A stretch of DNA of 64,000 nucleotides from Rhodocyclaceae bacterium (GTDB taxonomy: Bacteria; Pseudomonadota; Gammaproteobacteria; Burkholderiales; Rhodocyclaceae): the NCBI GenBank assembly GCA_028869135.1, contig JAGWTC010000005.1, positions 11,175 through 75,174 on the forward strand, given 5' to 3'. A program made the position numbers and the translations under genes. Under the pieces are notes generated by a model that saw nothing but the letters and a program-made list of their open reading frames with translations, was not told the origin of the DNA and did not search any database. This document shows, piece by piece, positions 39,692 to 54,684 of this stretch. Numbering within the stretch: the first letter of the stretch is position 1; the number at the start of each line of letters is the position of its first letter.

Positions 39692-40654
39692 TCAGATCAG
39701 CCTGCGCGCACTGGGCCGGGCGAAATAGAACCATTCGTTGCCCGGCAGGGCGCGCGGGTTGGGGAATACGATGAAGCCGTCATCGGCGACGGCGACCGGC
39801 GTGCCGTCATGGCGATGACCGATGACTTCGCCGGCCTTGACCGGGTCGAAGCTTTGCCACTCGCGCACGAAAATATCGCCCGGATGGTCGAGGTCGATCA
39901 CATCCTGCAGGCGCAAGACCTCGAAGTCTTGCGTCGGCGCCTGCGGTTGCGCGCCGCTGAGCCCGAGCAAGGCCAGCGTCTGGCGGATTGCGCGATAGGC
40001 GACTTCCGGTGCGGCGGGGTCGTCGTGCTGGCCGCATTCAAGCGTGACTCCGTAGCCGCCGCGGGAGCGCATGTATTCGGTCGTGCCGACGCCGTAGGCC
40101 GCATCCAGCAGCAGCGGGTTGGCATCCGGCTGCCGCGCCCGGCGGCGTTCGACGCCCAGCGCATAGGTATCGAGCCAGCCTTCCACGACGCGCGACACGC
40201 CGAGATGGGCGGCGAGTCGGGCTTCTTCCGCAGCGTGGGAAAACGGTTCCAGCGCGCCGTCATTGTCGCGCGGCCCCAGCATGACGAAGGGTTGGCCGCC
40301 CGTATGGAAGGAGTGCAGGTCGAGCAAGACCTCGTGCGCGTCCAGCAGCGGACACAGCGCATTGGCGATGCGGTCCTCGAAATCGCGGGGTTCCGCGTTG
40401 GGGCGCAGATTGCGGTTGAGATTGCGTTCGCCCTGTCGCTGCTTGCGGTCGTAGGCAAGCGGATTGGTGACGGGAACCAGTGTCAGCGTGCCACGCTCGA
40501 TGCGGAGCTCGCCGTTGTCGATCTCGGCGATCAGCCGCGCGATCGCGCGGGTGCCGCAAATTTCATTGCCGTGCACTGCGCCGAGAATGATCAGGCGCGG
40601 CCCCGGTTGCAGACCGGCATACTGGTGGACGCGCAGCGTGGTGGGTAGGGGCAC
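39692..40654 (-). CDS. Succinylglutamate desuccinylase/aspartoacylase-family zinc hydrolase
   Basis: ILGAVHGNE zinc motif and ERNLNR. No in-frame ATG lies near the conserved N-terminus, so the GTG at 40654 is proposed. Start uncertain. Confidence 0.7.
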   Translation of the reverse strand: MPLPTTLRVHQYAGLQPGPRLIILGAVHGNEICGTRAIARLIAEIDNGELRIERGTLTLVPVTNPLAYDRKQRQGERNLNRNLRPNAEPRDFEDRIANALCPLLDAHEVLLDLHSFHTGGQPFVMLGPRDNDGALEPFSHAAEEARLAAHLGVSRVVEGWLDTYALGVERRRARQPDANPLLLDAAYGVGTTEYMRSRGGYGVTLECGQHDDPAAPEVAYRAIRQTLALLGLSGAQPQAPTQDFEVLRLQDVIDLDHPGDIFVREWQSFDPVKAGEVIGHRHDGTPVAVADDGFIVFPNPRALPGNEWFYFARPSARRLI

Positions 40655-40727
40655 GATGAGGCGGAGGCGGCTGATGATCGATGCTCCGATTCTAGCCTGT
40701 CTGCGGCGGCCTCGTCGTGCGGCGGTT

Positions 40728-41420
40728 TTACGGCAGAAAGGCGGGCGACAGCAGGCGCAGGCCGATGGATATCCAGTTGTCTCCGCCATTGTTGCGATTG
40801 CCGTAGGTGGCATCGACCTGCACGCGATTGGGCACAACCCAGTGCCGCAGGCCGATTTGGTAGTAAGGATTGCCTTGATTCTCGCCGTAAATTTCGGCGA
40901 TCAGCCAGGTGCGCGACGTCATCTCCACTTCGCTGCCAAGGCCCCAGAGCATGGCGTCATGATGCTTGTCCTGTGTTCGCGCCCAGCCGAGATTGGTGTG
41001 GAGCACCACCTTGTCGTCGCGAAACGAAAATGAAGCCGGTATGTAAGCGTAGATGTCGCCAATCATCTCGCGGGCAAGGTCCGGGTGGTGGGCGATGCCC
41101 GCCGTCAGACCCCAGGCCCAGCCATTGGGCTCCAGCGTCTTGAACAGCGTTTTTCCTTGCAGTACCACATCGCTGGTCCGGCTTTCGCCATTGGCGCGAG
41201 TGCTTGCACCACCGAGCGCCAGCTCCAGGTTGCCGGAGAAGTTGCAGGAGGGCAGCGCCCAGTATTCCTCGCTGTCGCGACGAGTCTTGACCCAGCTTTC
41301 CAGTTGGCATGATTTGTCGTCGACGATGCGCGCATCATCGGTGACCATGGGGCGGGCGGCCTGGGCTGACGGGCTGAGCCAGAGCCCGAAGCACAGCAGG
41401 ACAGGAAGTCTGAGGTGCAT
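40728..41420 (-). CDS. Hypothetical outer-membrane beta-barrel protein
   Basis: 230 aa with a signal peptide ending AQA. Alternating aromatic/polar strands. Confidence 0.6.
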   Translation of the reverse strand: MHLRLPVLLCFGLWLSPSAQAARPMVTDDARIVDDKSCQLESWVKTRRDSEEYWALPSCNFSGNLELALGGASTRANGESRTSDVVLQGKTLFKTLEPNGWAWGLTAGIAHHPDLAREMIGDIYAYIPASFSFRDDKVVLHTNLGWARTQDKHHDAMLWGLGSEVEMTSRTWLIAEIYGENQGNPYYQIGLRHWVVPNRVQVDATYGNRNNGGDNWISIGLRLLSPAFLP

Positions 41421-41518
41421 GGGGGATATACCGAGGAGGAGCCGGATTGTAGGGGCAGTTTGTTTCGAAATGAAGAAAAATAAAACTCCATTGGCAACAA
41501 TGGCTTATAATCGACCCT

Positions 41519-42607
41519 TTGTATATTTGCGGCGCTGCTGTTAGCCGTTTATGCGAGGTTGTGGTTTTGCGGTCCTTTGTTATTGATCTGTTCAAGGCGG
41601 TGGCAGCGCAGTTGATCGTGCTCCACCATCTGGTTGCGTATGGCCCCGTTGCTGCGGCTGTCGCCGTGGCCTCTCCTCTGGCGGCTGACTGGTTGTTCGA
41701 TTACGCGCGCATGGCGGTGCAGGCTTTCATCGTCATCGGCGGTTATCTGGCCGCGCGCAGCTTCAGCGGCAGCAATAGAGGCCATCCGCTGTCCCCGATC
41801 TTCAAGCGCTATCTGCGTCTGGTCGTTCCTTTTCTTGCGGCGCTGGCGCTGACCAGCGTCGTTGCCGCCTTTGTGCGCCCCTGGTTCAACGACGACGCCT
41901 TGCCTACTGTGCCGACCTTTGGTCAGGTGTTTGCCCATATTTTCCTGCTGCACGGTGTGCTGGATTACGAATCGCTGTCGGCCGGCGCCTGGTATGTCGC
42001 CATCGACTTCCAGCTCTACGCCTTGTTCGCCTTGCTGGTCTGGGGCAGCCGTCAGGCGCCGCGCTGGCACCTCGCCGTGGTGATCGGCCTTACGGCGGCC
42101 TCGCTGTTCCATTTCAATCGGCACATCGAGCTGGATAACTGGGCGCTGTATTTCTTCGGCGCCTATGGCATGGGCGTGCTGGCCTTCCACATCAGCCGCC
42201 GGTCGCGCCCGCTGCCGTGGCTGGGCGCGCTGATCGCTGTCGCCGCCGCCGCGCTGTGGCTGGACTTCCGCGGCCGCATTCTGCTCGCGCTGTGTATCGC
42301 GGTGGCCCTGGTGCTGCTGCGCAACGTCGCCATCGACAAGCACGGCAAGCCGGCGCAGCGCATCGGCTATCTGGGGCTCAATTCCTATTCCCTGTTCCTG
42401 GTGCACTTCTCCCTATGCCTGCTGGGCAATGCCTTGTTCGTCCGTATGGGCTGGCATTCTCCGGCCGAGGGTATTTCGATGCTGCTGCTGATCTGGCTGG
42501 CGAGTAATCTGCTGGCGGATCGCTTCTTCAAGCGCGTCGAGCAGCCGGCCGGCAAGCTCGATTGGGAAAGCTCCCTGTTGCGCTTGCGACGCAGCGAAAG
42601 CGCCTGA
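41519..42607 (+). CDS. Acyltransferase family 3 membrane protein
   Basis: About 350 aa with about 10 TM helices. AAQLIVLHH N-terminal motif. Start (TTG at 41519 or a downstream GTG) uncertain. Confidence 0.75.
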   Translation: MYICGAAVSRLCEVVVLRSFVIDLFKAVAAQLIVLHHLVAYGPVAAAVAVASPLAADWLFDYARMAVQAFIVIGGYLAARSFSGSNRGHPLSPIFKRYLRLVVPFLAALALTSVVAAFVRPWFNDDALPTVPTFGQVFAHIFLLHGVLDYESLSAGAWYVAIDFQLYALFALLVWGSRQAPRWHLAVVIGLTAASLFHFNRHIELDNWALYFFGAYGMGVLAFHISRRSRPLPWLGALIAVAAAALWLDFRGRILLALCIAVALVLLRNVAIDKHGKPAQRIGYLGLNSYSLFLVHFSLCLLGNALFVRMGWHSPAEGISMLLLIWLASNLLADRFFKRVEQPAGKLDWESSLLRLRRSESA

Positions 42608-42754
42608 GTCTCCAGCCCCAGCAGCACCCGCATCCGCCTGCTGCCGTGCCGTGAGCGTCTCCATGGCGCGGCCGCGATGCGTTTTTGTGCCTGCCGCATC
42701 GGGGCGGGGTGGCGCAGGCAGATATCGATCCGCAAAAGGCTTGCGTTCATTGTT

Positions 42755-42773
42755 GAGAATAATTATCATTATT
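42755..42773 (+). promoter_or_regulatory. Fur box
   Basis: GAGAATAATTATCATTATT matches the consensus GATAATGATAATCATTATC at 15/19. Lies upstream of the PepSY cluster. Confidence 0.65.
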
Positions 42774-42867
42774 TGAAGACAACTCGCAGCCAGCCATCTG
42801 TCATGCCGCCCTGCGGCACCCATGCAGAACGCCAGCCAATCGTTCGTTTTGCATATCGGAAAGACAG

Positions 42868-43020
42868 ATGAAAATGCTGAAATCGCATTGCATGCCGCCG
42901 GCCCTGGCGGGCCTGATGCAAAGAATCGAGCCGGGCGCTTATGCGCCGGCCTATGCTGCGACGCGCAATATCGTGCTGAGCATGATGCGACACAAATTGC
43001 GATCGGGTAATCGCCTGTGA
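42868..43020 (+). CDS. Possible 50-aa leader or small protein (below the ORF-track cutoff)
   Basis: Own translation: MKMLKSHCMPPALAGLMQRIEPGAYAPAYAATRNIVLSMMRHKLRSGNRL. GGAAAG 5 nt upstream of the ATG. Stop TGA overlaps the next gene's GTG start (GTGA). GC3 counted at about 70%. Confidence 0.35.
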   Translation: MKMLKSHCMPPALAGLMQRIEPGAYAPAYAATRNIVLSMMRHKLRSGNRL

Positions 43021-43328
43021 GCCCCTATCACCTTGCCACGGGTGCGGTCGTCGTTCGTACCCTGCTCGCCAGCGTGGGTGGCTATGCGCTCGCCCTGAGC
43101 TTTACCGTCGGCGGCTCCATCGTCGTGGCGCGCAGCTTCGGCATGGCGCGCAGCGAGGCGATCGTGCTGGCCGCGATGCTGGCTTTTCTCGTCTGGATGC
43201 TGGCGGTGCTGATTGCTTTCGCCGCCACCACCACTTGGCGCGCGGCGGTCTGGATACTGGGCAGCGCGGCATCGTTCGCGCTGCTGGGCTGGGGGCTGGG
43301 GCCGCTGCAGGCGCCGGGAGGTATCTGA
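43017..43328 (+). CDS. DUF3649-like small membrane protein
   Basis: 103 aa with 3 TM helices and a GTG start. Family call is from memory. Confidence 0.6.
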   Translation: MSPYHLATGAVVVRTLLASVGGYALALSFTVGGSIVVARSFGMARSEAIVLAAMLAFLVWMLAVLIAFAATTTWRAAVWILGSAASFALLGWGLGPLQAPGGI

Positions 43329-43329
43329 C

Positions 43330-44898
43330 ATGGACAAGCGGCGCCACACCTTGAGACAGTCGATGGACTTCGTCCACACCTGGATGGGTGTGACATTTTC
43401 GACCTTGCTGTTCCTGGTCTTCTTCATGGGCACGCTGTCGGTGTTCGATCAGGAAATCGATCGCTGGATGCTGCCGCAGACGCGCCTAACGCCGGCCGCA
43501 TCGTTCTCCGTCGATCGCCAGATCCTGCCCCTGCTGCAGGCGCTGGCACCGGAGGCCAGGCAGTGGTCTATCCTCTATCCGTCGGAGCGGAGTCCCGTGG
43601 TGCGCATCGCCTGGCGCGAAGGCAAGACTTTCGTGTCGCGCCTGATCGATCCTGATCGTGGCGAGGTATTGCCGGAGGCTGGCAGTTGGGGTGGAACGGG
43701 ATTCTTCTTTCCGTTTCACTACAGCTTCCACATCAAGTGGATGGACCTGGGCTATTGGCTGCTGGCCATTGTCGGCATCGGCATGCTGGCGTTGCTGGTG
43801 TCGGGGGTGATCGTTCATCGGAAGATATTCACCGACTTCTTCACCTTCCGTCCGGACAAGAGCCGGCATAGGGCGACGCTGGATGTGCATAATATCTGCG
43901 GCGTGCTGATTCTGCCTTTCCACTTCCTGATCACGCTGTCCGGCCTGATCATCTTCTGCTCCATCTACTTCAAGCCGGCGCTGCCTTTGGTTTTTGGCGG
44001 AGATGCCCCCAAGGCTGCGCAGGAGATATTCGACCAGTTCGACCGCCCGCCGGCAAAGGTGCCGGGCACGCTGGGTTCGGTCGATGCCATGGTGGCCGAA
44101 GCGCAGCGCGCATGGGGCGGCGGCAACGTGCGTGTCGTGTCGATCGCCCATCCGCAAGACAGGAATGCCGTCGTACAGGTGCAGCGCCGCCCGGACGATC
44201 AGGTCGCCTATGCCACCGCGACGGTAGCCTTCGACGGCGCCAGCGGACAGTTGCTGTATGCGCAGAAGGCCGCCCCCGTGGCCGGTGTGCAGAAGTTTTT
44301 CTCCGGCCTGCACATGATTCCCTTCTCCCATTGGGGCATACGCTGGCTGTATTTCGTCATGGGCCTGGGCGGCTGCGTGCTGATCGCCACCGGCCTGCTG
44401 CTGTGGGTAGACAAGCGGGAGGTGCGCCAGCGCAAGGAAGGGAGGCGCAGCCATCGCGTCGTCAATGGCCTGGCCTGCGCCGGTACGCTCGGGGTGATCG
44501 TGGCGACGCTGGCCATGCTGGTGGCCAACCGTCTGCTGCCGTCGATGGAAAATCGACAGATGGTGGAAGCCGCGGCCTACTTTGCCGTCTGGATACTCAG
44601 CCTTCTGCACGCGACCTGGCGCAGCCGCGCGCCGCTAAGCCGCCGTGCGTGGTTCGAACAGGCGGCGGCGATCGGCGTACTCGCCCTGCTGGCCGTGATC
44701 CTGAATGCCCTGACCACCGGAGACAATCTGTACCGCAGCGTGCTTGACGGGAAGTGGGCGATAGCCGGCATCGACAGCGTATTGCTGGCGACCGCCCTGC
44801 TTGCGCTGTGCCTGGCGAGGCGCCACTTCCGGCGCGCGGCGGCGCTTCCTATTCCGGCGGGCGTCACCGCACTGAAGCCGGCGGAGAGCGCGCCATGA
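43330..44898 (+). CDS. PepSY-associated TM-helix protein (PiuB/FoxB-like)
   Basis: 522 aa from MDKRRHTLRQSMDFVHTWMGV (ATG at 43330). Has the characteristic H-containing TM helices. Confidence 0.85.
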   Translation: MDKRRHTLRQSMDFVHTWMGVTFSTLLFLVFFMGTLSVFDQEIDRWMLPQTRLTPAASFSVDRQILPLLQALAPEARQWSILYPSERSPVVRIAWREGKTFVSRLIDPDRGEVLPEAGSWGGTGFFFPFHYSFHIKWMDLGYWLLAIVGIGMLALLVSGVIVHRKIFTDFFTFRPDKSRHRATLDVHNICGVLILPFHFLITLSGLIIFCSIYFKPALPLVFGGDAPKAAQEIFDQFDRPPAKVPGTLGSVDAMVAEAQRAWGGGNVRVVSIAHPQDRNAVVQVQRRPDDQVAYATATVAFDGASGQLLYAQKAAPVAGVQKFFSGLHMIPFSHWGIRWLYFVMGLGGCVLIATGLLLWVDKREVRQRKEGRRSHRVVNGLACAGTLGVIVATLAMLVANRLLPSMENRQMVEAAAYFAVWILSLLHATWRSRAPLSRRAWFEQAAAIGVLALLAVILNALTTGDNLYRSVLDGKWAIAGIDSVLLATALLALCLARRHFRRAAALPIPAGVTALKPAESAP

Positions 44899-45251
44899 GC
44901 CAGCTCCTCGTTTATACCGGCGCACTGTTTGCGGCGTGGGCCGCCATGGGGGCGTTCTGCCTGCGCAGCGACGCCATTCGCAGCCGCTTGCGCTGGCCCG
45001 GATTTTCTGCCGAAGACAAGCAGCGCTATGCCTTCGGTGCCGTGCTGCTGTGTCTCCTGTCGCTGGGCATGCTGTGGCTTGCGGTACAACCCTCCTATGC
45101 GCTGATCCTGTGGGTGCTGCTGCATGGCGTCCTGGGCATGGCCATCGCGTTCGGCCTGCCGTATGCCAGCCGCGCCTTGTCGCAAAGTTTTGCCGTTGCT
45201 GCCGCTGCCTCCTTGTGCAGCCTGTGTGTACTTTTCGTTTTCGGAGCCTGA
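44895..45251 (+). CDS. DUF3325-like small membrane protein
   Basis: 118 aa. ATGA overlap with the PepSY stop. 3-4 TM helices. Confidence 0.6.
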   Translation: MSQLLVYTGALFAAWAAMGAFCLRSDAIRSRLRWPGFSAEDKQRYAFGAVLLCLLSLGMLWLAVQPSYALILWVLLHGVLGMAIAFGLPYASRALSQSFAVAAAASLCSLCVLFVFGA

Positions 45252-45253
45252 TC

Positions 45254-45973
45254 TTGATTGCAAAAAAACTGCTTGCCGGCCTGTTGGGTACGCTTGCCTT
45301 GGGCCATGCCGCCGCTCATCAGATATGGATAGAGCCTGCCGGCAAGGCCTATACGCTGCACTTCGGCGAATACGATGAAAACCTCAAGGAGGTCAGCCCC
45401 GGGCTGCTCGACAAAATGCCGACGCCGCATGTGGTCAGCGTTTCCGGCAGCAAGGAAACGCCGCTCGCAGTCAGCAAGGGCAAGGAGGGCTTCGGCCTCG
45501 ACGCAGGGCTGGGCAAGGTCGCTGCGATCGTTGCCGAGGTTCGCTCCTATCCCGTGTTCGAGCGCAAGAACGGCGAGCAGCTTGTGCGCGGCAAATGGGT
45601 GCCCGCCGCCCGCTATGTGTCCGACTTTTCTGCCCAGAAGCCGCTCAACATTCTGGATATTGTCCCGAACGGCGCACCCGGAAAATTCAAACTCTTCTTC
45701 CGCGGCCAGGCCTTGCCCAAAACCAAGTTGACCCTGGTCGCGCCGAACGGCTGGCACAAGCCGCTGCAATCGGACGATAACGGCGAGTTCGAGGCAGCGA
45801 CCTTGTGGCGCGGCGACCATGTGATCGAGGCCTCGTACAAGGAAACGACGGCCGGAGAGATCGGCGGCGACAAGTACGACAACGCCAGTTTCACCAGCAC
45901 TCTGACCTTCACTCAGACCACGGGCACCGCCACGCCGCGTCCGACGCCGAGCAGGCCGCACGAGATGAAGTGA
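45254..45973 (+). CDS. DUF4198-like periplasmic protein
   Basis: Signal peptide (I)AKKLLAGLLGTLALGHAAAHQIWIEP. TTG start proposed, start uncertain. Confidence 0.65.
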   Translation: MIAKKLLAGLLGTLALGHAAAHQIWIEPAGKAYTLHFGEYDENLKEVSPGLLDKMPTPHVVSVSGSKETPLAVSKGKEGFGLDAGLGKVAAIVAEVRSYPVFERKNGEQLVRGKWVPAARYVSDFSAQKPLNILDIVPNGAPGKFKLFFRGQALPKTKLTLVAPNGWHKPLQSDDNGEFEAATLWRGDHVIEASYKETTAGEIGGDKYDNASFTSTLTFTQTTGTATPRPTPSRPHEMK

Positions 45974-46187
45974 GCGGGTCCGCTGGCAGCGATGGCGACA
46001 TGCATGAGGCGATGACCGGCAATTCATCGAGATGAGATGGCGATTCCGCGCGAACTGCAATCGGCAAACGTCGAGGTTTACTCTCTGCGCCTCAAGGAGC
46101 GGCGTTTGCTCTATCATGCGTTTGGGTCCAGGATCGGTGCATGAGAATGCCGACCGCCCGGACGCCGGCGATCGGCTACCCGGAAAG

Positions 46188-46218
46188 ACGGCCTCCCCTG
46201 CGGAGGCCGTTTTCATTT
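46188..46218 (+). terminator. Rho-independent terminator
   Basis: ACGGCCTCC-cctgc-GGAGGCCGT followed by TTTCATTT. Lies 215 nt after the DUF4198 stop. Confidence 0.75.
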
Positions 46219-46289
46219 GATCTCATGGCTTCCCGCGCCGGCTTGCGTCGCGCGGGAGTGACACATGAGGCGCTATAACAGGAGCAGCA

Positions 46290-47915
46290 ATGGATTTCGA
46301 ACTACCGGATGTACTGGCCGGCAAACTGCTCGGCCATATCGACCAGGACAGCGTCCTGGCGAAACAGTTGTCGGAGCATCGCAACCGGCGCGGTCGCATC
46401 ATCGTGTCCAGCAAGCTCTTCAATGGCGCCGCGTTGAACACGCTTTACGGCCTTTGCAAGGCGAACGACGAACGCAACCTGATGTTCCAGTTGCTGGCGC
46501 TGGACAATATTCGCAGTTCGCCCGATGCGCGCAAGATTCCCAGTCTCGAAGTCCTGATCAACGGTCTGATCGCCTACCTCAAGCGCGACGCCATCGACGG
46601 CTGGCTCTACAAGCGCAACAAGGACGGCGTGCTGCTGCCGTGGCTGGTGACCGGCATGCGCCACATGATTCCGGTTGAAGGCAAGCCCTATGTCGTCGTC
46701 AGCCTGGTGGCCAACACGCTGCAATCGGCCGACAAGGAGCCGTCGGACGATTACCGCCAGCGCCGCTCCGGCATGAACACGGTCATCGTCATCGACGGCA
46801 ACGACATTGCCGACCGATCGATTCCCCAACTGCTTGCGGAGCTCGGCTACTTCAAGGAGTGCCCCGACTTCAAGCGCGAATACGAGGAGCAGATCGCGCG
46901 CTTTCATTCCATGCAACCCAGCTTCGGCACGCAGTTCGTGGCCAAGCGCGCGGCCTATCTGCTGCGCAGCAGGGCGGGCCACGAATTCCTCGCGCTGCCG
47001 GCGGGTCAGGTGGCCAAGGTGGTCAACGACGAGGAAATCCTCGAACGCCGTTTCGAAACCAACGCCGACAATGCGTTCTGGTGCGAGTCCGGCCTCGAGA
47101 GCGGCTTCGACCAGATTCCCCTGCATCCCTATCTGCACGTCTTCCATCTCGAACTGCATCGCAATATCTGGGTGCACGTCGACAATCTGGAGGAGTACAG
47201 GTACAACCCGGCCTTGCGTGAAAAACTGGTGCTGCCGCAGGACCATCGCGACCTGATCGACATTCTGACCGCCGACATGGGCGTGCTTCTGGAGGATATC
47301 GTCGAGGGCAAGTCGGGCGGGACCACCATCCTCTGTAAAGGCGCGCCGGGCCTGGGCAAGACGCTGACGGCCGAGGTCTATGCCGAAGTCGTCGGCAAGC
47401 CGCTCTATCGCGTTCACTCCGGCCAGCTTGGCATCAGCGCCGAGTCGGTCGAGGCGCATCTGTCCACCATCCTGCGTCGCGCGGCGCGTTGGGGCGCGAT
47501 CCTGCTGCTCGACGAGGCCGACGTTTATATCCGTCAGCGCGACAATGACCTGCAGCACAATGCCATCGTCGCCGAGTTCCTGCGCACGCTCGAATACTTC
47601 AGCGGTCTGCTGTTCATGACAACCAATCGCACGAACGATATCGACGACGCCATCGTCTCGCGCTGCATTGCCATCATCAAGTACGAGATGCCCTCGCGCG
47701 AAGACAGGCTGCGCCTGTGGAGGACCCTGGCGGCGCAGTTCCTGGTTGAACTGTCGGACGACATGATCGAGACCTTGACCAATCGCTTCCCCGACACCAG
47801 CGGTCGCGATATCAAGGAGCTGCTGAAGCTGACCGCCAAGTTCTGCCGCAGCAAGAATATCCCGTTCTCGGAAGAGGCTTTCCGCCAGTGCGCGATGTTT
47901 CGCGGCATCCAATAG
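46290..47915 (+). CDS. Classical AAA+ ATPase with a large uncharacterised N-terminal region
   Basis: 541 aa. RBS AGGAG. Walker A GAPGLGKT (aa 351-358), Walker B LLLDEAD (405-411), sensor-1 TTN (444-446), Arg-finger region DDAIVSR (R458) and lid SGRDIKELL. I match no motif in aa 1-320. No signal peptide or TM helix. Confidence 0.85.
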   Translation: MDFELPDVLAGKLLGHIDQDSVLAKQLSEHRNRRGRIIVSSKLFNGAALNTLYGLCKANDERNLMFQLLALDNIRSSPDARKIPSLEVLINGLIAYLKRDAIDGWLYKRNKDGVLLPWLVTGMRHMIPVEGKPYVVVSLVANTLQSADKEPSDDYRQRRSGMNTVIVIDGNDIADRSIPQLLAELGYFKECPDFKREYEEQIARFHSMQPSFGTQFVAKRAAYLLRSRAGHEFLALPAGQVAKVVNDEEILERRFETNADNAFWCESGLESGFDQIPLHPYLHVFHLELHRNIWVHVDNLEEYRYNPALREKLVLPQDHRDLIDILTADMGVLLEDIVEGKSGGTTILCKGAPGLGKTLTAEVYAEVVGKPLYRVHSGQLGISAESVEAHLSTILRRAARWGAILLLDEADVYIRQRDNDLQHNAIVAEFLRTLEYFSGLLFMTTNRTNDIDDAIVSRCIAIIKYEMPSREDRLRLWRTLAAQFLVELSDDMIETLTNRFPDTSGRDIKELLKLTAKFCRSKNIPFSEEAFRQCAMFRGIQ

Positions 47916-48023
47916 GGAGGAGCCGGCGCAAGCCGGCTGCCCCGTATTTTTCTGCAGCGGCGCTTGATCTCGCCATCGTGGCCGCTGAAGGAGTATTCTC
48001 CGTGCATACAGGAGCACGGTGCA

Positions 48024-48401
48024 ATGAGTGTCGAAGAGCTTAAGCAGGACGGAGTTTCGCAGGCAAGCAAGGTCCTGTCTTTTTCCGAAGGCGCCGCCAG
48101 ACGCGCGGCCCATGAGCTTTTGGCCTTGCTGCAGGTCTATGATCGCCTGATCGCGCTGCTGCGCGAGACCGACAACGACGGGCTCGACATGCTCACCGAC
48201 GGCCTGGTGCTGTCGGCGGTGCGTTGCCGCGCCGTGCTGGCGCAGGGCGGCAACGACGCCGGGATGCAGCAGATGACGAGCGAGCTGCGCGCCGGCCTGC
48301 GCGAAATGCCCGGCACCCTGCGCGCCTTGCTGCCCGGACTGGGGCCGCGTCTTGTCGAAAGCCTTCAGCACAAGCTCGGCATCCAGTTTCTTGCCTACTG
48401 A
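48024..48401 (+). CDS. Hypothetical small helical protein, partner of the AAA+ ATPase
   Basis: 125 aa from MSVEELKQDG. AGGAG 9 nt upstream of the ATG at 48024. Leu/Ala/Arg-rich and predicted all-helical. No recognised family. Confidence 0.55.
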   Translation: MSVEELKQDGVSQASKVLSFSEGAARRAAHELLALLQVYDRLIALLRETDNDGLDMLTDGLVLSAVRCRAVLAQGGNDAGMQQMTSELRAGLREMPGTLRALLPGLGPRLVESLQHKLGIQFLAY

Positions 48402-48527
48402 GCGAGCCGCCCTTTTTCGCGGCGGCCGGATGAACAGGCGCATCTTGCGCTATATCAAAAGGGCTGCGCCTCTGATGATGCACAGTGGATCGGATGTAGT
48501 TCCCTTCATGTTCAAAGGAGACGTGTC

Positions 48528-49010
48528 ATGAAACGCATGCTTGCCCTGACTCTGTTTGCCGCCAGCCTGACCGCAGCCCCGGCCTGGGCCGCCGCGCCGT
48601 CGGAAGCTCCTCCTCCCAAGCCGAGCGCCAAGGCGACCGCCTCGCCAAGGCCCGCCCCTGGCGAGCTGACGCCTGCACAGCGCGCGCAAATGGAAAAGCA
48701 GATTGCCTCAATGCAGGAGATACACGAGAAGTTCATGGCCGCCAAGACGCCGGAGGAGCGCGCTGCGCTCATGGATGAACACATGAGGACCATGCAGGCC
48801 GGCATGTCCATGATGCGGGAAATGCACGGCGGCCCGCCGATGGGAAGAGGTATGGGCAGGGGAATGGGCGGCGGAATGGGGATGGGCCGAGGCATGGGCC
48901 CAGGTCCAGGTCAGGGCTGCATGGAAACATGCATGCAGTCGCGCATGGACATGATGGAAATGATGATGCAGATGATGATGGATAGAGCCGCCGCTGTTTC
49001 GGGAAAGTAG
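48528..49010 (+). CDS. Periplasmic Met-rich protein with an LTXXQ (Spy/CpxP/ZraP-like) motif
   Basis: 160 aa with a signal peptide. LTPAQRAQM motif. (G/R)MG repeats MGRGMGRGMGGGMGMGRGMG and a MDMMEMMMQMMMD tail. RBS AAGGAG. Confidence 0.7.
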   Translation: MKRMLALTLFAASLTAAPAWAAAPSEAPPPKPSAKATASPRPAPGELTPAQRAQMEKQIASMQEIHEKFMAAKTPEERAALMDEHMRTMQAGMSMMREMHGGPPMGRGMGRGMGGGMGMGRGMGPGPGQGCMETCMQSRMDMMEMMMQMMMDRAAAVSGK

Positions 49011-49030
49011 TAGGCGGTTCCCAGTAAGAA

Positions 49031-49054
49031 GGAAGCCGGCGCATGCCGGCTTCC
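49031..49054. terminator. Palindromic hairpin between convergent genes
   Basis: GGAAGCCGGC-gcat-GCCGGCTTCC. No strong U-tract on either side. Confidence 0.45.
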
Positions 49055-49081
49055 TCACATTCGCGGCCGCGACGCGCTCGA

Positions 49082-50311
49082 TTACCAGTGCGTGTCGCTT
49101 TCGGCAGTCGAGCCGATCTTGTGTATGGACAGGTCGGCGCCGTTGAATTCCTCTTCCCGGTCGAGCCGCAGGCCGACGGTGCGCTTTAGGGTGGCGTAGA
49201 CCGCGAATCCGCCGATGACGGCGACGGCGATTCCGAGCAGGGTGCCGAGCAACTGGCTGACGAAGCTGACGTTGCCGAGGCCGCCCAGCGCGGCGCTGCC
49301 GAAAATGCCGGCGGCGATGCCGCCCCAGGTACCGCACAGGCCGTGCAGGGGCCAGACGCCGAGCACGTCGTCGATCTTCCAGCGGTTTTGCGTGCAGGTG
49401 AACAGGCGTACGAACAGCGCCCCGGCGATGGCGCCGATGATCAGCGCGCCGAGCGGATGCACGAGGTCCGAACCGGCGCAGATGGCGACCAGTCCGGCCA
49501 GTGCGCCGTTATGCACGAAGCCCGGATCGTTGCGTCCCACCAGCGTTGCGGCCAGTGTGCCACCGACCATGGCCATCAGCGAGTTCATGGCGACGAGGCC
49601 GGTGATCTTGTCCAGGGTTTGCGCGCTCATGACGTTGAAGCCGAACCAGCCGACGATGAGTATCCAGGAACCGAGCGCAAGAAAAGGGATGCTCGACGGC
49701 GGATGGGCGGCGACCGCGCCATCCCTGGTATAGCGGCCGTGGCGGGCGCCGAGTTGCAGCACAGCCATCAGGCCGATCCAGCCGCCGACGGCATGCACGA
49801 CGATGGAGCCGGCGAAGTCGTGGAACTCGGCGCCGAAACTGGCCTTCAGCCAGGACTGGAAGCCGAAGGCGCCGTTCCAGGCGATGCCTTCGAAGAAGGG
49901 ATAGATGAAGCCGACGATGAGGAAGGTGGCGGCAAGCTGCGGATTGAAGCGCGCGCGCTCGGCGATGCCGCCCGAGATGATGGCGGGAATGGCGGCGGCG
50001 AAGGTCAGCAGGAAAAAGAATTTGGTCAGGTCGTAGCCATTGCGCTGCGACAGCACCTCGGCGCCGCTGAAGAAATGCATGCCGTAGGCGATGCCGTAGC
50101 CGATGAAGAAATACGCCAGCGTGGAAACCGAAAAGTCCACCAGGATTTTGACCAGCGCATTGACCTGGTTCTTCTTGCGTACGGTGCCGAGCTCCAGAAA
50201 GGCGAAACCGGCGTGCATGGCCAGAATCATGATGGCGCCGAGCAGGATGAACAGTACGTCGGCGGAAGTATGCAATTGTTCCAAAATGGGGCTCCCAGGG
50301 CGGTTTGGCAC
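49082..50311 (-). CDS. amt: Ammonium transporter (Amt family)
   Basis: About 400 aa with 11 TM helices. AGFAFLE.G and GGW.G..A motifs. The track start is the GTG at 50311. An in-frame TTG at 50284 with GGGAG 7 nt upstream is an alternative. Confidence 0.9.
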   Translation of the reverse strand: MPNRPGSPILEQLHTSADVLFILLGAIMILAMHAGFAFLELGTVRKKNQVNALVKILVDFSVSTLAYFFIGYGIAYGMHFFSGAEVLSQRNGYDLTKFFFLLTFAAAIPAIISGGIAERARFNPQLAATFLIVGFIYPFFEGIAWNGAFGFQSWLKASFGAEFHDFAGSIVVHAVGGWIGLMAVLQLGARHGRYTRDGAVAAHPPSSIPFLALGSWILIVGWFGFNVMSAQTLDKITGLVAMNSLMAMVGGTLAATLVGRNDPGFVHNGALAGLVAICAGSDLVHPLGALIIGAIAGALFVRLFTCTQNRWKIDDVLGVWPLHGLCGTWGGIAAGIFGSAALGGLGNVSFVSQLLGTLLGIAVAVIGGFAVYATLKRTVGLRLDREEEFNGADLSIHKIGSTAESDTHW

Positions 50312-50338
50312 GCTAATGGTGATATGGCTGCCTGTATG

Positions 50339-50354
50339 AGCAACAACTGTTCCA
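50339..50354 (-). promoter_or_regulatory. Sigma-54 (-24/-12) promoter of amt
   Basis: Minus strand reads TGGAAC-AGTTG-TTGCT. GG-N10-GC spacing is correct, with one mismatch to TGGCAC-N5-TTGCW. Confidence 0.6.
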
Positions 50355-50397
50355 ACTTGGTGCTTATTGTCAAATCAGGCGCTTAGCCCTTTTGCTT

Positions 50398-50422
50398 GTG
50401 CGCTGGCGCACCGCAATGGTGC
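50398..50422 (-). promoter_or_regulatory. Putative NtrC enhancer sites upstream of amt
   Basis: GCACCGCAATGGTGC (GCACC-N5-GGTGC) overlapping the palindrome GTGCGCTGGCGCAC. Confidence 0.5.
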
Positions 50423-50431
50423 TTTTCAAAT

Positions 50432-50462
50432 ACAACAAAGCCCCAATTTGGGGCTTTGTTGT
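50432..50462 (-). terminator. 14-bp perfect hairpin downstream of mltA
   Basis: ACAACAAAGCCCCA-att-TGGGGCTTTGTTGT. Weak U-tract. Confidence 0.45.
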
Positions 50463-50504
50463 ATTGGATGCGGCAATTTGGGGCGGTCTGGCTGCAGCGG
50501 GGGT

Positions 50505-51713
50505 TCAGGGCAGTTTTGCGGCGGCCGGCTCGTGGTCGCGCGGCAGCAGCACCCACATGCTGCCGGTTTGCCGCATCCGCCCCGCCTGGGCGCCGGCAGC
50601 CGGGCCCGAGCCCCAGTAGAAGTCGGCGCGTACCGGGCCGCGGATGGCTCCACCCGTGTCCTGCGCCAGCATCAGCCGCTGCAAGGGCTGATCGCTATTG
50701 GGCTGGGTGGTGCTCAACCAGACCGGCGCACCCAGCGGCGTCGTGCGCGGATCGACGGCAATGCTGCGCTCGGGTGTCAAGGCGATGCCCATCGCCCCTT
50801 GCGGACCGCTGCCTTCGGCCTTGAGCTCGCGGAAGAAAACCAGACTCGGGTTCTGGTTCAGCAACTCCTGCAAACGCCTGGGGTTGGCGCGCGCCCAGGC
50901 CTTGATGCCCTGCATTGAAGCCTGCTCCGGCTTGAGTTCGCCCTTGTCGATCAGCCAGCGGCCGATAGAGTGGTAGGGATGGCCGTTCTGGTCGGCGTAG
51001 TTGAGACGGATGCGGCTGCCGTCGTCGAGGGCGATCTGCCCCGAGCCCTGAATCTGCATGAAAAAGAAGTCAACGGCATCGTCCACCCACAGCAGCGATT
51101 TTCGCTTGTCTTCCTGCTGCGTCCACTCGGAGCGCGAATAGAAAGGTACCAGCTTGCGACCCTCGATGCGGCCGCGCAGGCGCATGTTCTTCAGCTCGGG
51201 GTAGAGCTCGCCGAGATCGACGACGATGAGATCGTCCGGCACGCCGAAAACCGGCGTTGTATAGGGTGGCTTGCGCGTGCGGCTGCCCGAAAGCACCGGC
51301 TCGTAGTAGCCGGTGATGAGGCCGCTGCGCGTGCCATCCGGATTGACGAGCTGCCAGGGGCGCAACTGGACTTCGAACCAGGTGCGCACGGCATCGGCGT
51401 CGGGGCTGGGGAGGGCAAGCGCGCTGGCGCAGGTAGCGCGCCACAGCGGCTGTCTGGACAGGCTGACGCACTCGTTGACGAATGCCTGGAAGGCCGGCAG
51501 CGGATTGTCGTCGCGCCAGCCCGGCAGGTCGCTGTATTGGGCCGCCTGCAGCGGCGGCACGGCGGGCCTGGCGGGTTCGGCCTCCTTGCATGGCACGCAG
51601 GGGCTGGCGGTCGTGGCGGGCTTTCCCGGCAACTGTGCGCAGCCCGCCATGAGCAAGAGAAGCGGGATGGCGGTAAACAGGCGACGGGCGGTGGGTGTCT
51701 GGAGCATGCGCAT
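50505..51713 (-). CDS. mltA: Membrane-bound lytic murein transglycosylase A
   Basis: 402 aa. Lipobox LMAGC. MltA and 3D domain motifs (GYYEP, ADFYWG). Confidence 0.88.
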   Translation of the reverse strand: MRMLQTPTARRLFTAIPLLLLMAGCAQLPGKPATTASPCVPCKEAEPARPAVPPLQAAQYSDLPGWRDDNPLPAFQAFVNECVSLSRQPLWRATCASALALPSPDADAVRTWFEVQLRPWQLVNPDGTRSGLITGYYEPVLSGSRTRKPPYTTPVFGVPDDLIVVDLGELYPELKNMRLRGRIEGRKLVPFYSRSEWTQQEDKRKSLLWVDDAVDFFFMQIQGSGQIALDDGSRIRLNYADQNGHPYHSIGRWLIDKGELKPEQASMQGIKAWARANPRRLQELLNQNPSLVFFRELKAEGSGPQGAMGIALTPERSIAVDPRTTPLGAPVWLSTTQPNSDQPLQRLMLAQDTGGAIRGPVRADFYWGSGPAAGAQAGRMRQTGSMWVLLPRDHEPAAAKLP

Positions 51714-51798
51714 CTGCTAAAGTCGAGGGCCGATGTGAAGAAGGTTTCACGCAAGATTAGCAGAGGCAGACCGTCTCGCTGTTGCAGAGTTCCCACCT

Positions 51799-52692
51799 AT
51801 GAGTTCCTTACCTCCGGAGTTCTTTCGTTTTCTGGAGCGCGCCGAAACTGTGCTGGCGCGCGTCGAGTCTCTGTTGCCGCCGTCGCCGCGCGCCGTCAAT
51901 TGGGACGCGCATGCCTATCGCTGGCGCAAGCAGCGCGGTTACGGGCAGCTCGAAGCGGTAGTGCACCCGCACCGGATTCGCGCCGAGGATTTGTGCGGCG
52001 TCGAGGACCAACTGCAGCGCATCGATCAGAATACGCGCCAGTTCGTCGCCGGCCGCAGCGCCAACAATGTGCTGCTGACCGGCGCGCGCGGCACCGGCAA
52101 GTCCTCGCTGGTCAAGGCCATGCTGGAGCGTTATGCCGGCCGGGGCTTGCGCCTGATCGAGGTCGACAAGGAAGATCTCGTCGATCTGCCCGACATCGTC
52201 GATCTCGTTGCCGACCGCAGCGAACGCTACATCATCTTCAGCGACGATCTGTCCTTCGAGTCTGGCGAGGCGAGCTATAAGGCGCTGAAGAGCATCCTCG
52301 ACGGCTCGATCGCCGGCACGCCGCAGAATGTGCTGATCTACGCCACCTCGAATCGCCGTCATCTGATGCCGGAGTTCATGAGCGAGAATCTGGAGACCCG
52401 CGTCGAGAACGGCGAGATCCGGCCGGGCGACACGACCGAGGAAAAGGTGTCCCTGTCCGAGCGTTTCGGTTTGTGGATTTCCTTCTATCCCTTCGATCAG
52501 GACAAATACCTGGAAATCTGTGCGCACTGGCTGGCGTCGTTCGGTGTGAGTGTCGCGCAGATCGAAGCCTCTCGTCAGGATGCGCTGCAATGGGCGCTGC
52601 TGCGTGGCGCGCGTAGTGGTCGCGTGGCCTGGCAGTTTGCCCGCGATTATGTCGGCCGCCTTGATGCCGAAAGCAACGAGGTCCGACCGTGA
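51799..52692 (+). CDS. DUF815-type P-loop ATPase
   Basis: 297 aa. Walker A GARGTGKSS and Walker B IIFSDDLSF. Confidence 0.8.
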   Translation: MSSLPPEFFRFLERAETVLARVESLLPPSPRAVNWDAHAYRWRKQRGYGQLEAVVHPHRIRAEDLCGVEDQLQRIDQNTRQFVAGRSANNVLLTGARGTGKSSLVKAMLERYAGRGLRLIEVDKEDLVDLPDIVDLVADRSERYIIFSDDLSFESGEASYKALKSILDGSIAGTPQNVLIYATSNRRHLMPEFMSENLETRVENGEIRPGDTTEEKVSLSERFGLWISFYPFDQDKYLEICAHWLASFGVSVAQIEASRQDALQWALLRGARSGRVAWQFARDYVGRLDAESNEVRP

Positions 52693-53627
52693 GCGTGAAA
52701 AAAGTCGAGGTTGCCGCGGCGGTGATCGAGCGCCCCGACGGAACTTTCCTGCTTGGGCGCCGGCCGCCCAACGGCATTTACGCCGGCTGGTGGGAGTTTC
52801 CGGGAGGCAAGGTCGAGGCCGGCGAAACGCCGCATCAGGCGCTGGTGCGCGAGCTGCAGGAAGAGCTGGGCATCGACGTCGAGTGTGCCTACCCGTGGAT
52901 CATGCGCGAGCATGCTTACGAGCACGCGCATGTGCGTTTGCATTTCTTCCGCGTCACCGACTGGCGCGGCGAGTTGCGCGATCTGCAGCATGACCAACTG
53001 TCATGGCAACTCGCCGACGACGTTTTCGTGGCGCCGGTATTGCCGGCCAACGCCCCCGTCTTTTCGGGGCTGCGCCTGCCGCTGCAATACGGCATTACGC
53101 ACGCCTGGGAAATCGGGGTGGAGGCGCAACTGGAAAAGCTCCGGCACGCCTTGTCGCGAGGCCTGCGCCTGGTGCAATTGCGCGAGACCGCACTGCCGCC
53201 CGCGGAGCGCGAACGCTTCGTGAATCTCGCGGTGGAGATGTGCCACGCGCAAGGCGCGCGCGTGCTGGTGAATGGCGATATCGAGCTGGCGCGCCAGTCG
53301 CGCGCCGATGGCGTGCACTTCTCCGCTGCGCAAATGATGGCGCTGGACGCGCGCCCCGGTTTCGAGCTGGTTGCCGCTTCGTGCCATACCGCGGCAGAGT
53401 TGGACAAGGCGGCGCAACTCGAACTGGATTTCGTCGCCATCGGCGCGGTACAACCGACGCTGAGCCATCCGGGCCGGCCGGCATTGGGTTGGGAACGATT
53501 CGCCGATCTGGCGCGGGATTTTCCTGCGCCAGTGTTTGCGCTCGGCGGCCTGGCGTTGCGGGATATGGAAATGGCGCGGCGCAACGGCGCGCACGGCATC
53601 GCGGCGATCCGCAGCATCTGGGGTTGA
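52689..53627 (+). CDS. Nudix (MutT-like) hydrolase fused to a ThiE/TMP-synthase-like domain
   Basis: GTG start overlapping the upstream stop (GTGA). Nudix box GGKVEAGETPHQALVRELQEELGI. The C-terminal half is a TIM-barrel ThiE-like domain (VQLRE..., ..ALGG). Confidence 0.8.
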   Translation: MSVKKVEVAAAVIERPDGTFLLGRRPPNGIYAGWWEFPGGKVEAGETPHQALVRELQEELGIDVECAYPWIMREHAYEHAHVRLHFFRVTDWRGELRDLQHDQLSWQLADDVFVAPVLPANAPVFSGLRLPLQYGITHAWEIGVEAQLEKLRHALSRGLRLVQLRETALPPAERERFVNLAVEMCHAQGARVLVNGDIELARQSRADGVHFSAAQMMALDARPGFELVAASCHTAAELDKAAQLELDFVAIGAVQPTLSHPGRPALGWERFADLARDFPAPVFALGGLALRDMEMARRNGAHGIAAIRSIWG

Positions 53628-53729
53628 CCCTTCACTCAGGAGGAACCGGGCTAGGGTGCGCGGTTTGTCCGTTCCGCGAACGTATCGCTTTGCCTTGAGG
53701 CGCCGAATTTCTCTGGCGTGGCGCTGGGC

Positions 53730-53924
53730 TTAGTTGCCACCGCGATTGTCGGGCGGCGTTTCCTCGTCTTCCGTCGGCGCGCTCTGGCTGACGCGGTATT
53801 CCTCGTTGGCCCAGGCGCCCAGATCGATCTTCTTGCAACGCTCGGAGCAGAAGGGGCGGAAGCGGTTCTCGGGTTTCCATTCGACCTGCTTGCCGCAGGT
53901 CGGGCAGTTGACGACTTTACTCAT
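53730..53924 (-). CDS. yacG: DNA gyrase inhibitor YacG
   Basis: 64 aa. CPTCGK...FCSERCK zinc finger. Confidence 0.9.
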
Positions 53925-53928
53925 GCGC

Positions 53929-54684
53929 TTACAGATTGCAGAAGGTCAGGCCGAAGCCGATGTCGACTTCCGCCTGCTTCGGTCGCACGGCTGATTCAGG
54001 CTCGGTGAAGCGGATATTGATCGCGTACTTGTTGGCGCTGATTTCGGGGATGTAGTGGTCGCCGTCGTCTACGGTCAGACGCAACATTTGCGCAGTGCGT
54101 CCGCCCAGCATGAGCTGGAAGACGCCGCGCTTGGCCACCTGCAAGTCGGGATGACCGGACGAGCGCAGGAGGCGCAGCACGATGGATATTCCCTGGCTGA
54201 TGGGCAACATGGGCCGCACCCAGTTGCTCAGCGATTCGCGCCGCGATTCTGCATCGCGATGCAGCCAATAGTGATAGCCAGGCAAGTCGAATTCGCACAC
54301 GCCGCCGGGAATGGCGGCGCGGTTCTTGATCGACATCAGCCACTCGTTTTCGCGCAGGTACTGGCCGATCTTGCCTTGCATGGCGAGCAGCCCGGAACTG
54401 GCCTGCTCTATTTCATAGAGGGCACCCGACAAGGCGTCTTCGGAAATCTGCGGATTGTTGCGGAAGGACAGCAGGATTTGGCGCTGACGTTCCAGTTCTT
54501 GGACGAGGTCGAACTTGAGGTCGGCGCGGCCGGCTACTTCCAGTATCTCGAACAGCGTGACTAGCGCTACATGATGTTCCTGCGCGCCTTCGCCGTTGGT
54601 GAAGTGCAGGGTGCGCTCGAACAAGTCCTCCAGCCGCAGCAGGGTGCGGATGCGCTCGTTCAAGGGATATTCGTAAGTGATCAC
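53929..54684 (-). CDS. zapD: Cell division protein ZapD
   Basis: 251 aa, GTG start. [19 protein letters not shown]-terminus. coaE-zapD-yacG synteny. Confidence 0.9.

Follow-up and report, generated by a model that had tools for sequence, protein, structure and literature searches.

The question raised by the locus at positions 46,219 to 48,401 of a 64,000-nucleotide stretch from Rhodocyclaceae bacterium (assembly GCA_028869135.1, contig JAGWTC010000005.1, positions 11,175 to 75,174 of the forward strand; henceforth called the window, with positions counted from its first letter) is whether the AAA+ ATPase gene found there and the gene for a 125-amino-acid (125-aa) protein behind it belong together, and to which family the ATPase belongs. 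An earlier note, made from the sequence alone, had described the two as a module of an orphan ATPase and a small helical partner. The reading arrived at here is a joint one, which we consider probable: the ATPase is an intact classical AAA+ protein of a phage-dominated family, its chromosomal homologues form one clade, an esterase cassette accompanies it in relatives, and the 125-aa gene is unrelated to it. The ATPase gene and the parts of its product on which this reading is built are listed below, with residue conservation given as counts by column in an alignment of 90 diverse family members.

46290..47915, + strand: gene of the AAA+ ATPase (541 aa), ATG start, AGGAG 8 nt upstream; chromosomal member of PHROG 29662
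46290..47279, + strand: family-specific N-terminal domain (aa 1-330), mixed alpha/beta, shared by 606 representative clusters
47280..47912, + strand: classical-clade AAA module with helical lid (aa 331-541), from PDB sequence and Foldseek matches
47340..47363, + strand: Walker A GAPGLGKT (aa 351-358); G354, G356 and K357 invariant
47424..47438, + strand: pore-loop-1 position Q-L-G-I-S (aa 379-383), without the aromatic residue of threading AAA unfoldases
47502..47522, + strand: Walker B LLLDEAD (aa 405-411); E409 invariant, D408 and D411 nearly invariant
47619..47627, + strand: sensor-1 TTN (aa 444-446); N446 invariant
47661..47663, + strand: arginine-finger candidate R458 in the motif DIDDAIVSR; R458, D452 and A454 invariant, S457 nearly so
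47799..47825, + strand: lid motif SGRDIKELL (aa 504-512); R506 invariant

The catalytic apparatus of the ATPase is intact, with all named motifs conserved. The complete classical AAA module that had been read from the sequence before was thereby recovered motif by motif, each one being invariant or nearly so in the 90 members. Pfam AAA (PF00004) matched aa 348-464 with an E-value of 3.2e-14 (53.9 bits; gathering cut-off 21.2), and PDB sequence matches of the AAA core to Rix7, Msp1 and p97 covered aa 345-516 at E-values down to 2e-10. The protein is a stand-alone, single-module AAA+ of the classical clade and shares with Msp1/ATAD1, Rix7/NVL, p97/Cdc48 and Rpt the AAA fold, Walker A and B, sensor 1, and the arginine of DIDDAI-x-R. 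The match to these proteins is, however, confined to the C-terminal ~200 residues, and the N-terminal domain (N-domain) is unrelated to their N-domains or transmembrane helix. Two features of the core also differ from the classical clade, namely the lack of an aromatic residue in pore loop 1 and the presence of R506 at the sensor-2 position, where that clade mostly has alanine; from its place in the lid, R506 would act as sensor 2. Residues 379-383, which we take to be pore loop 1 by alignment to classical AAA proteins, do not show the aromatic-hydrophobic-Gly pattern of threading AAA proteins: position 379 is Q, T, S or L, position 380 is L in 86 of the 90 members, position 381 is G in all 90, and aromatic residues are absent from the four commonest residues at each of the five positions.

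For aa 1-330, no match was obtained in Pfam, NCBIfam or PADLOC. Searching the N-terminal 325 aa against 1.84 billion representative proteins returned 606 clusters at E <= 1e-3 (251 at E <= 1e-10), and since nearly all of these clusters are 520-600 aa long, with alignments reaching the AAA junction, the region is a conserved domain that defines a family of fixed architecture. The full-length AlphaFold2 model, built from a 90-sequence alignment, reached a predicted local distance difference test (pLDDT) value of 94.1 and a predicted template modelling score (pTM) of 0.89, and a model of the N-domain only reached a pLDDT of 90.6. When the full model was searched against the PDB with Foldseek, Msp1, Rpt subunits, p97 and Ycf2-FtsHi were retrieved at E-values of ~1e-12 over ~240 residues; the AAA core was the sole match (query-normalised template modelling (TM) score ~0.35), and the N-domain was left unmatched. 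The N-domain model by itself retrieved from the PDB small SH3/Tudor/EF-P-like barrels alone (best E-value 0.023, TM <= 0.15), and an N-domain profile search of PDB sequences gave nothing significant. As modelled, the N-domain is well folded and conserved, and it is without a solved relative. The earlier note had been unable to place the ~320-aa N-terminal region, and the profile and Foldseek checks agree with it in that they returned neither a curated domain family nor a solved fold.

Predicted structures of giant-virus AAA ATPases (Mimivirus LCMiAC01 A0A481Z0A9, Hyperionvirus A0A3G5A9Z5, Klosneuvirus A0A1V0SHU6, and others) superpose on both domains of the window ATPase, with query-normalised TM scores of 0.63-0.65, 454-590 aligned columns, and E-values down to 8e-32. 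They differ from it in that their sequence identity is 16-23% and they are proteins of eukaryote viruses, also uncharacterised; the comparison of models suggests that their N-domains are homologous to the one described here. A likeness of this kind would be in keeping with the AAA clade, abundant in fungi, that the earlier note had named as similar. The best PDB match within the N-domain was a weak one of aa 37-144 (window 46398..46721) to a MarR/SlyA-type regulator profile (E-value 0.041), and the matching stretch coincides with a three-helix plus beta-hairpin part of the model. This match is not significant and was treated as noise; at most, it may hint at a winged-helix sub-domain.

The window ATPase is a member of PHROG 29662, a large uncharacterised family in which an N-domain of ~330 aa is always fused to one AAA module; it matched phrog_29662 at an E-value of 1.1e-143 (aa 48-540 on profile positions 51-545 of 548). 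The supposed orphan is instead one member of a family with hundreds of clusters. The family is carried mainly by phages and includes an early gene of the jumbo phages AR9 and PBS1. Among GenBank phages, relatives of the N-domain were found by tblastn only in the Bacillus jumbo phages AR9, PBS1, Goe21, and Internexus. AR9 gp082, which has an annotated early promoter directly upstream, is 47% identical to the window ATPase over 504 aa (E-value 2e-161), in an alignment that takes in the entire AAA module and the greater part of the N-domain. AR9 gp082 and PBS1 gp276 resemble the window ATPase in their two-part architecture and length (548 vs 541 aa), with both fitting phrog_29662 end to end; unlike the window ATPase, which is chromosomal, encoded in a betaproteobacterium, and surrounded by housekeeping genes, AR9 gp082 is an early gene of a phage with a Firmicutes host. 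Conservation of the family between very distant hosts is unusually high. The phage proteins are annotated as 'ATP-dependent protease' or 'AAA family ATPase', and the former label is unsupported because no protease domain was detected. Literature searches returned no paper on this AAA family. The gene directly after AR9 gp082 (L089 6509..6841) is gp083, which encodes a 110-aa annotated virion structural protein and shows no similarity to the 125-aa protein of the window.

Beyond these phages, an IMG/VR scan with the full-length alignment yielded 177 viral stretches encoding ATPase relatives, on contigs of 5-251 kb. Seven contigs of distant family members were inspected, six of them phage-like in context and one bacterial-looking. 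Four of the phage-like contigs (roughly 20-45 kb) carry AcrVA2-like, ART-PolyVal, Lar, DNA methylase, RecA, exonuclease, NinX, and L5 gp82 genes, and the other two (212 kb and 398 kb) contain long stretches of unannotated small open reading frames (ORFs). In two phage-like contigs, an AcrVA2-like gene lies beside or near the ATPase homologue (L092:4637-5857, L087:1244-2230), and both ART-PolyVal genes (L088, L092) and DUF4031 genes (L087, L088) recur. Because of these neighbours, the phage copies may sit in accessory or counter-defence regions. Across 87 viral loci, no neighbouring gene family recurred beyond near-identical contigs, and the ORFs flanking the ATPase in seven of these loci are unrelated to each other and to the small ORF of the window; hence, the phage ATPase is a stand-alone gene. 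Since most of its diversity is phage-encoded, the family can be linked to genetic conflict, and to this extent the conflict or defence role proposed earlier was supported; the two-gene module on which it was based was not, and the chromosomal surroundings are housekeeping genes rather than a defence island.

Full-length relatives of ~541 aa and 54-91% identity occur across Burkholderiales and Rhodocyclales, in genera including Herminiimonas, Oxalicibacterium, Oxalobacter, Polaromonas, Variovorax, Polynucleobacter, Paraburkholderia, and Azoarcus. When a neighbour-joining tree was built, the chromosomal ATPases of Betaproteobacteria, that of the window included, fell into one shallow clade, with phage-context members spread through the much deeper remainder. 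The ATPase gene is flanked in the window by PepSY_TM, AmtB, MltA, and DUF815 genes, in Herminiimonas by SodB, XseA, ExbB/ExbD, LpxK, KdsB, and Adk genes, and in other genera by genes for PEP carboxylase, a PLD-family protein, a pseudouridine synthase, and an ion channel. These neighbourhoods, here and in relatives, are of a housekeeping kind, and nothing in them suggests a defence island or prophage. No tRNA gene was found within 23 kb of the locus. The GC content at third codon positions (GC3) amounts to 83% in the ATPase gene and 81% in the 125-aa gene, and local GC equals that of the window, in line with the host-like GC3 that had been reported for the locus before. The window ATPase is therefore not a phage or prophage gene but a chromosomal homologue with host-like composition.

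Eighty genome loci encoding a full-length ATPase relative were compared. When every ORF up to 4 kb from the ATPase gene was clustered across these loci, one conserved neighbour emerged, an alpha/beta-hydrolase of ~240 aa (henceforth called the esterase), which was located by tblastn near the ATPase in 41 of the 80. Its usual place is directly behind the ATPase gene, in the same orientation, and in one locus (L046) the distance from the ATPase stop codon to the esterase start codon is 1 nt; other placements are convergent (L023), divergent (L008), upstream (L027), or 4-5 kb off (L074, L079, L081). In the assembly of Polynucleobacter sp. MWH-HuK1, a 2.4-kb segment consisting of exactly the ATPase and the alpha/beta-hydrolase is present twice (L033:4974-7386, L045:4977-7386), the copies having 88% nucleotide identity, ATPases that are 92% identical, and unrelated flanks; either the two genes have travelled together as a cassette or sequences of two strains are mixed in the assembly. 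With 23.1 bits, the esterase barely reaches the threshold of Pfam Abhydrolase_2; it has weak matches to PHA-depolymerase/carboxylesterase models (NF050058, 43.8 bits; PRK11460, 40.3 bits), and has no PADLOC match. In the window, no esterase stands immediately beside the ATPase gene, and tblastn over the whole 64 kb gave nothing better than an E-value of 2.8. The ATPase-esterase pair is the real cassette of the betaproteobacterial clade, and the window has lost the esterase or never had it.

The gene that does follow the ATPase in the window, and the two hairpins that were thought to set the pair apart and to regulate it, are the following.

48024..48401, + strand: gene of the 125-aa protein, restricted to Betaproteobacteria, 108 nt downstream of the ATPase gene and with its own AGGAG
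46185..46213, + strand: hairpin resembling an intrinsic terminator (12-bp stem with 7 GC pairs, T-run), standing between the PepSY_TM cluster upstream and the ATPase gene
47921..47938, + strand: intergenic hairpin with a 7-bp stem and GCAA loop, seen in the sequence

The earlier note took the ATPase and the 125-aa helical protein for a two-gene system dedicated to defence or stress remodelling, with differential expression of the pair set by the intergenic hairpin. Several of its elements are sound. Both genes lie on the same strand, and the strong upstream terminator was found again. The 125-aa gene with its own AGGAG is a genuine protein-coding gene: its homologues at three Rhodocyclaceae genome loci share 62-70% identity and have indels that keep the frame, nucleotide differences fall preferentially on third codon positions (e.g., 57, against 30 at first and 20 at second positions), and public data hold ~60 homologue clusters. 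The pair itself recurs, yet it does so in only three of the 75 loci with at least 600 bp of downstream sequence, all three from close Rhodocyclaceae relatives (L004, L007, L082), as well as on two identical contigs. Three further loci with ATPases 84-91% identical (L003, L005, L006) are without the small ORF, its place being taken in L005 by an HflX-like GTPase gene and in L006 by a chemoreceptor gene (both identified by reading translations). Conversely, distant small-ORF homologues on long contigs (L083, L084, L086) have no AAA gene within 6 kb and are neighboured by CTI/EgtB/EgtD, SLAC1/DsbD, and EAL genes; in the 3.78-Mb record of Herminiimonas arsenitoxidans, the two genes are 2.2 Mb apart, at ~1.28 Mb and ~3.50 Mb. 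A small-ORF relative is encoded in none of the 87 viral loci, and none of the downstream ORFs compared from phages is related to it. The 125-aa protein has no match in Pfam, PADLOC, NCBIfam, PHROG, or PDB, and the defence-library check that had been proposed returned from PADLOC only sub-threshold matches to the AAA core. As to the GNRA-capped hairpin, it exists at the place given for it, but its region folds at -24.9 kcal/mol, not better than composition predicts (z = -1.26 vs shuffles), and it was not called by the terminator scan because the T-run begins 7 nt after the stem; a role as regulatory element was rejected on these two grounds. Rfam found nothing in window positions 40000-54000. 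The two-gene reading is contradicted by the co-occurrence data and largely refuted, and we give it hardly any credence: the 125-aa gene is a separate, lineage-restricted neighbour, and its adjacency is local synteny in one small clade rather than a partnership.

With the small protein set aside, the esterase could still make the betaproteobacterial clade an anti-phage defence of the IetAS type, in which the ATPase would be the sensor or motor and the esterase the effector, the window holding a solo ATPase remnant. The best defence-library match of the AAA core is indeed IetA/IteA (PADLOC, 50.4 bits; NCBIfam NF042959, 38.4 bits); a serine hydrolase accompanies the ATPase in relatives, as in IetAS; the cassette is found in differing contexts and twice in one assembly; and the family is shared with phages. 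Phage-host sharing is common among defence and counter-defence genes. Against this, the 38.4 bits stand far from the IteA equivalog cut-off of 510 and come from the AAA core only, IetA is ~370 aa long and its models do not match the N-domain, the hydrolase partner is an alpha/beta-hydrolase without a PADLOC match, and no subtilisin-like IetS protease was seen among the ATPase neighbours. Identification of the window ATPase as IetA was rejected on the score and on the lack of an IetS gene nearby. The neighbourhoods are housekeeping rather than defence islands, and the broad retention across genera including Polynucleobacter is more like that of a core function than patchy, so that an IetAS-type defence seems unlikely to us. 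Another candidate role is that of a housekeeping remodeller that works with the esterase in lipid or polyhydroxyalkanoate (PHA) metabolism, e.g., by pulling a depolymerase or lipase from granules or membranes or by activating it there. The esterase's weak PHA-depolymerase and carboxylesterase matches point in this direction, as do a PLD-family (cardiolipin-synthase-like) gene directly upstream in L025, ORFs matching it in size and position at four further Comamonadaceae loci, and a chromosomal context that is stable within genera. These esterase matches are far below curated cut-offs, though, phage members have neither esterase nor lipid genes nearby, the window is without the esterase, and the N-domain shows no tie to lipids; we rate such a role as quite unlikely. 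A CBASS-associated TRIP13/Pch2 was also considered and rejected, with a PADLOC TRIP13 match of 32 bits over aa 395-496 only; neither HORMA nor CD-NTase genes are present among the flanking genes of the window.

For the preferred reading, an intact classical AAA+ of a phage-dominated family, a mode of action can be proposed. The ATPase would assemble into a ring, presumably hexameric as in classical AAA proteins, the N-domain would recognise a conserved cellular target, and ATP hydrolysis would remodel or disassemble that target. A conserved target is proposed because of the strong sequence conservation between Bacillus phage and Betaproteobacteria, and processive polypeptide threading is probably not used, because pore loop 1 lacks an aromatic residue. 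Some points weigh against this reading or parts of it. A missing aromatic pore loop does not exclude substrate translocation, and target, oligomeric state, and activity are all things that we infer, since the literature searches gave no characterised family member. The tree is a rough, midpoint-rooted one that does not resolve the direction of transfer between phages and bacteria, the esterase link in this organism was judged within the 64-kb window only, and the adjacency of the small ORF in the three Rhodocyclaceae loci could reflect a young, clade-specific association.

A more far-reaching scenario, which we hold as a tentative and rather doubtful one, is that the ATPase arose as a widespread early phage protein for host takeover or counter-defence, with an N-domain directed at a universal bacterial component, and was captured once by an ancestor of Burkholderiales and Rhodocyclales, repurposed as a cellular remodeller, and paired with the esterase in half of the lineages. 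A universally conserved bacterial target would explain the 47% identity between the Bacillus jumbo-phage and betaproteobacterial proteins. If this were true, the window gene would be a former weapon of phages, domesticated and now in the service of the host. Whatever the origin, a false lead is removed, in that 'ATPase + small partner' turns out to be merely neighbouring genes in one small clade. Attention is drawn instead to an unstudied AAA+ family with hundreds of clusters and a confidently modelled N-domain without a solved match, which many phages carry. Its chromosomal clade and the esterase occur in cultivable hosts (Variovorax, Herminiimonas, Polaromonas), which could offer a route to the targets of the phage ATPases.

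A few further observations concern the surroundings of the locus. Upstream, a 239-aa ORF at 45254..45973 (+ strand), which lies downstream of the PepSY_TM gene, has no Pfam match, and is a called gene on contig L001, ends 212 nt before the terminator at 46185..46213. A 713-aa antisense ORF (46302..48443, - strand) runs across both genes, and similar shadow ORFs recur in the loci of relatives; they are by-products of the high GC3 in the sense genes, not genes themselves. Downstream, a 160-aa ORF at 48528..49010 (+ strand) without a Pfam match combines a signal-peptide-like N-terminus with a very Met/Gly-rich tail (MGRGMGRGMGGGMGMGRGMG ... MMEMMMQMMM), and its product may be a periplasmic metal-binding protein (for copper, possibly). 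Farther on, the gene at 51799..52692 (+ strand), divergent from the MltA gene at 50505..51713, encodes another P-loop ATPase, which is unrelated to the first and belongs to the DUF815 family (PF05673, E-value 4e-105).

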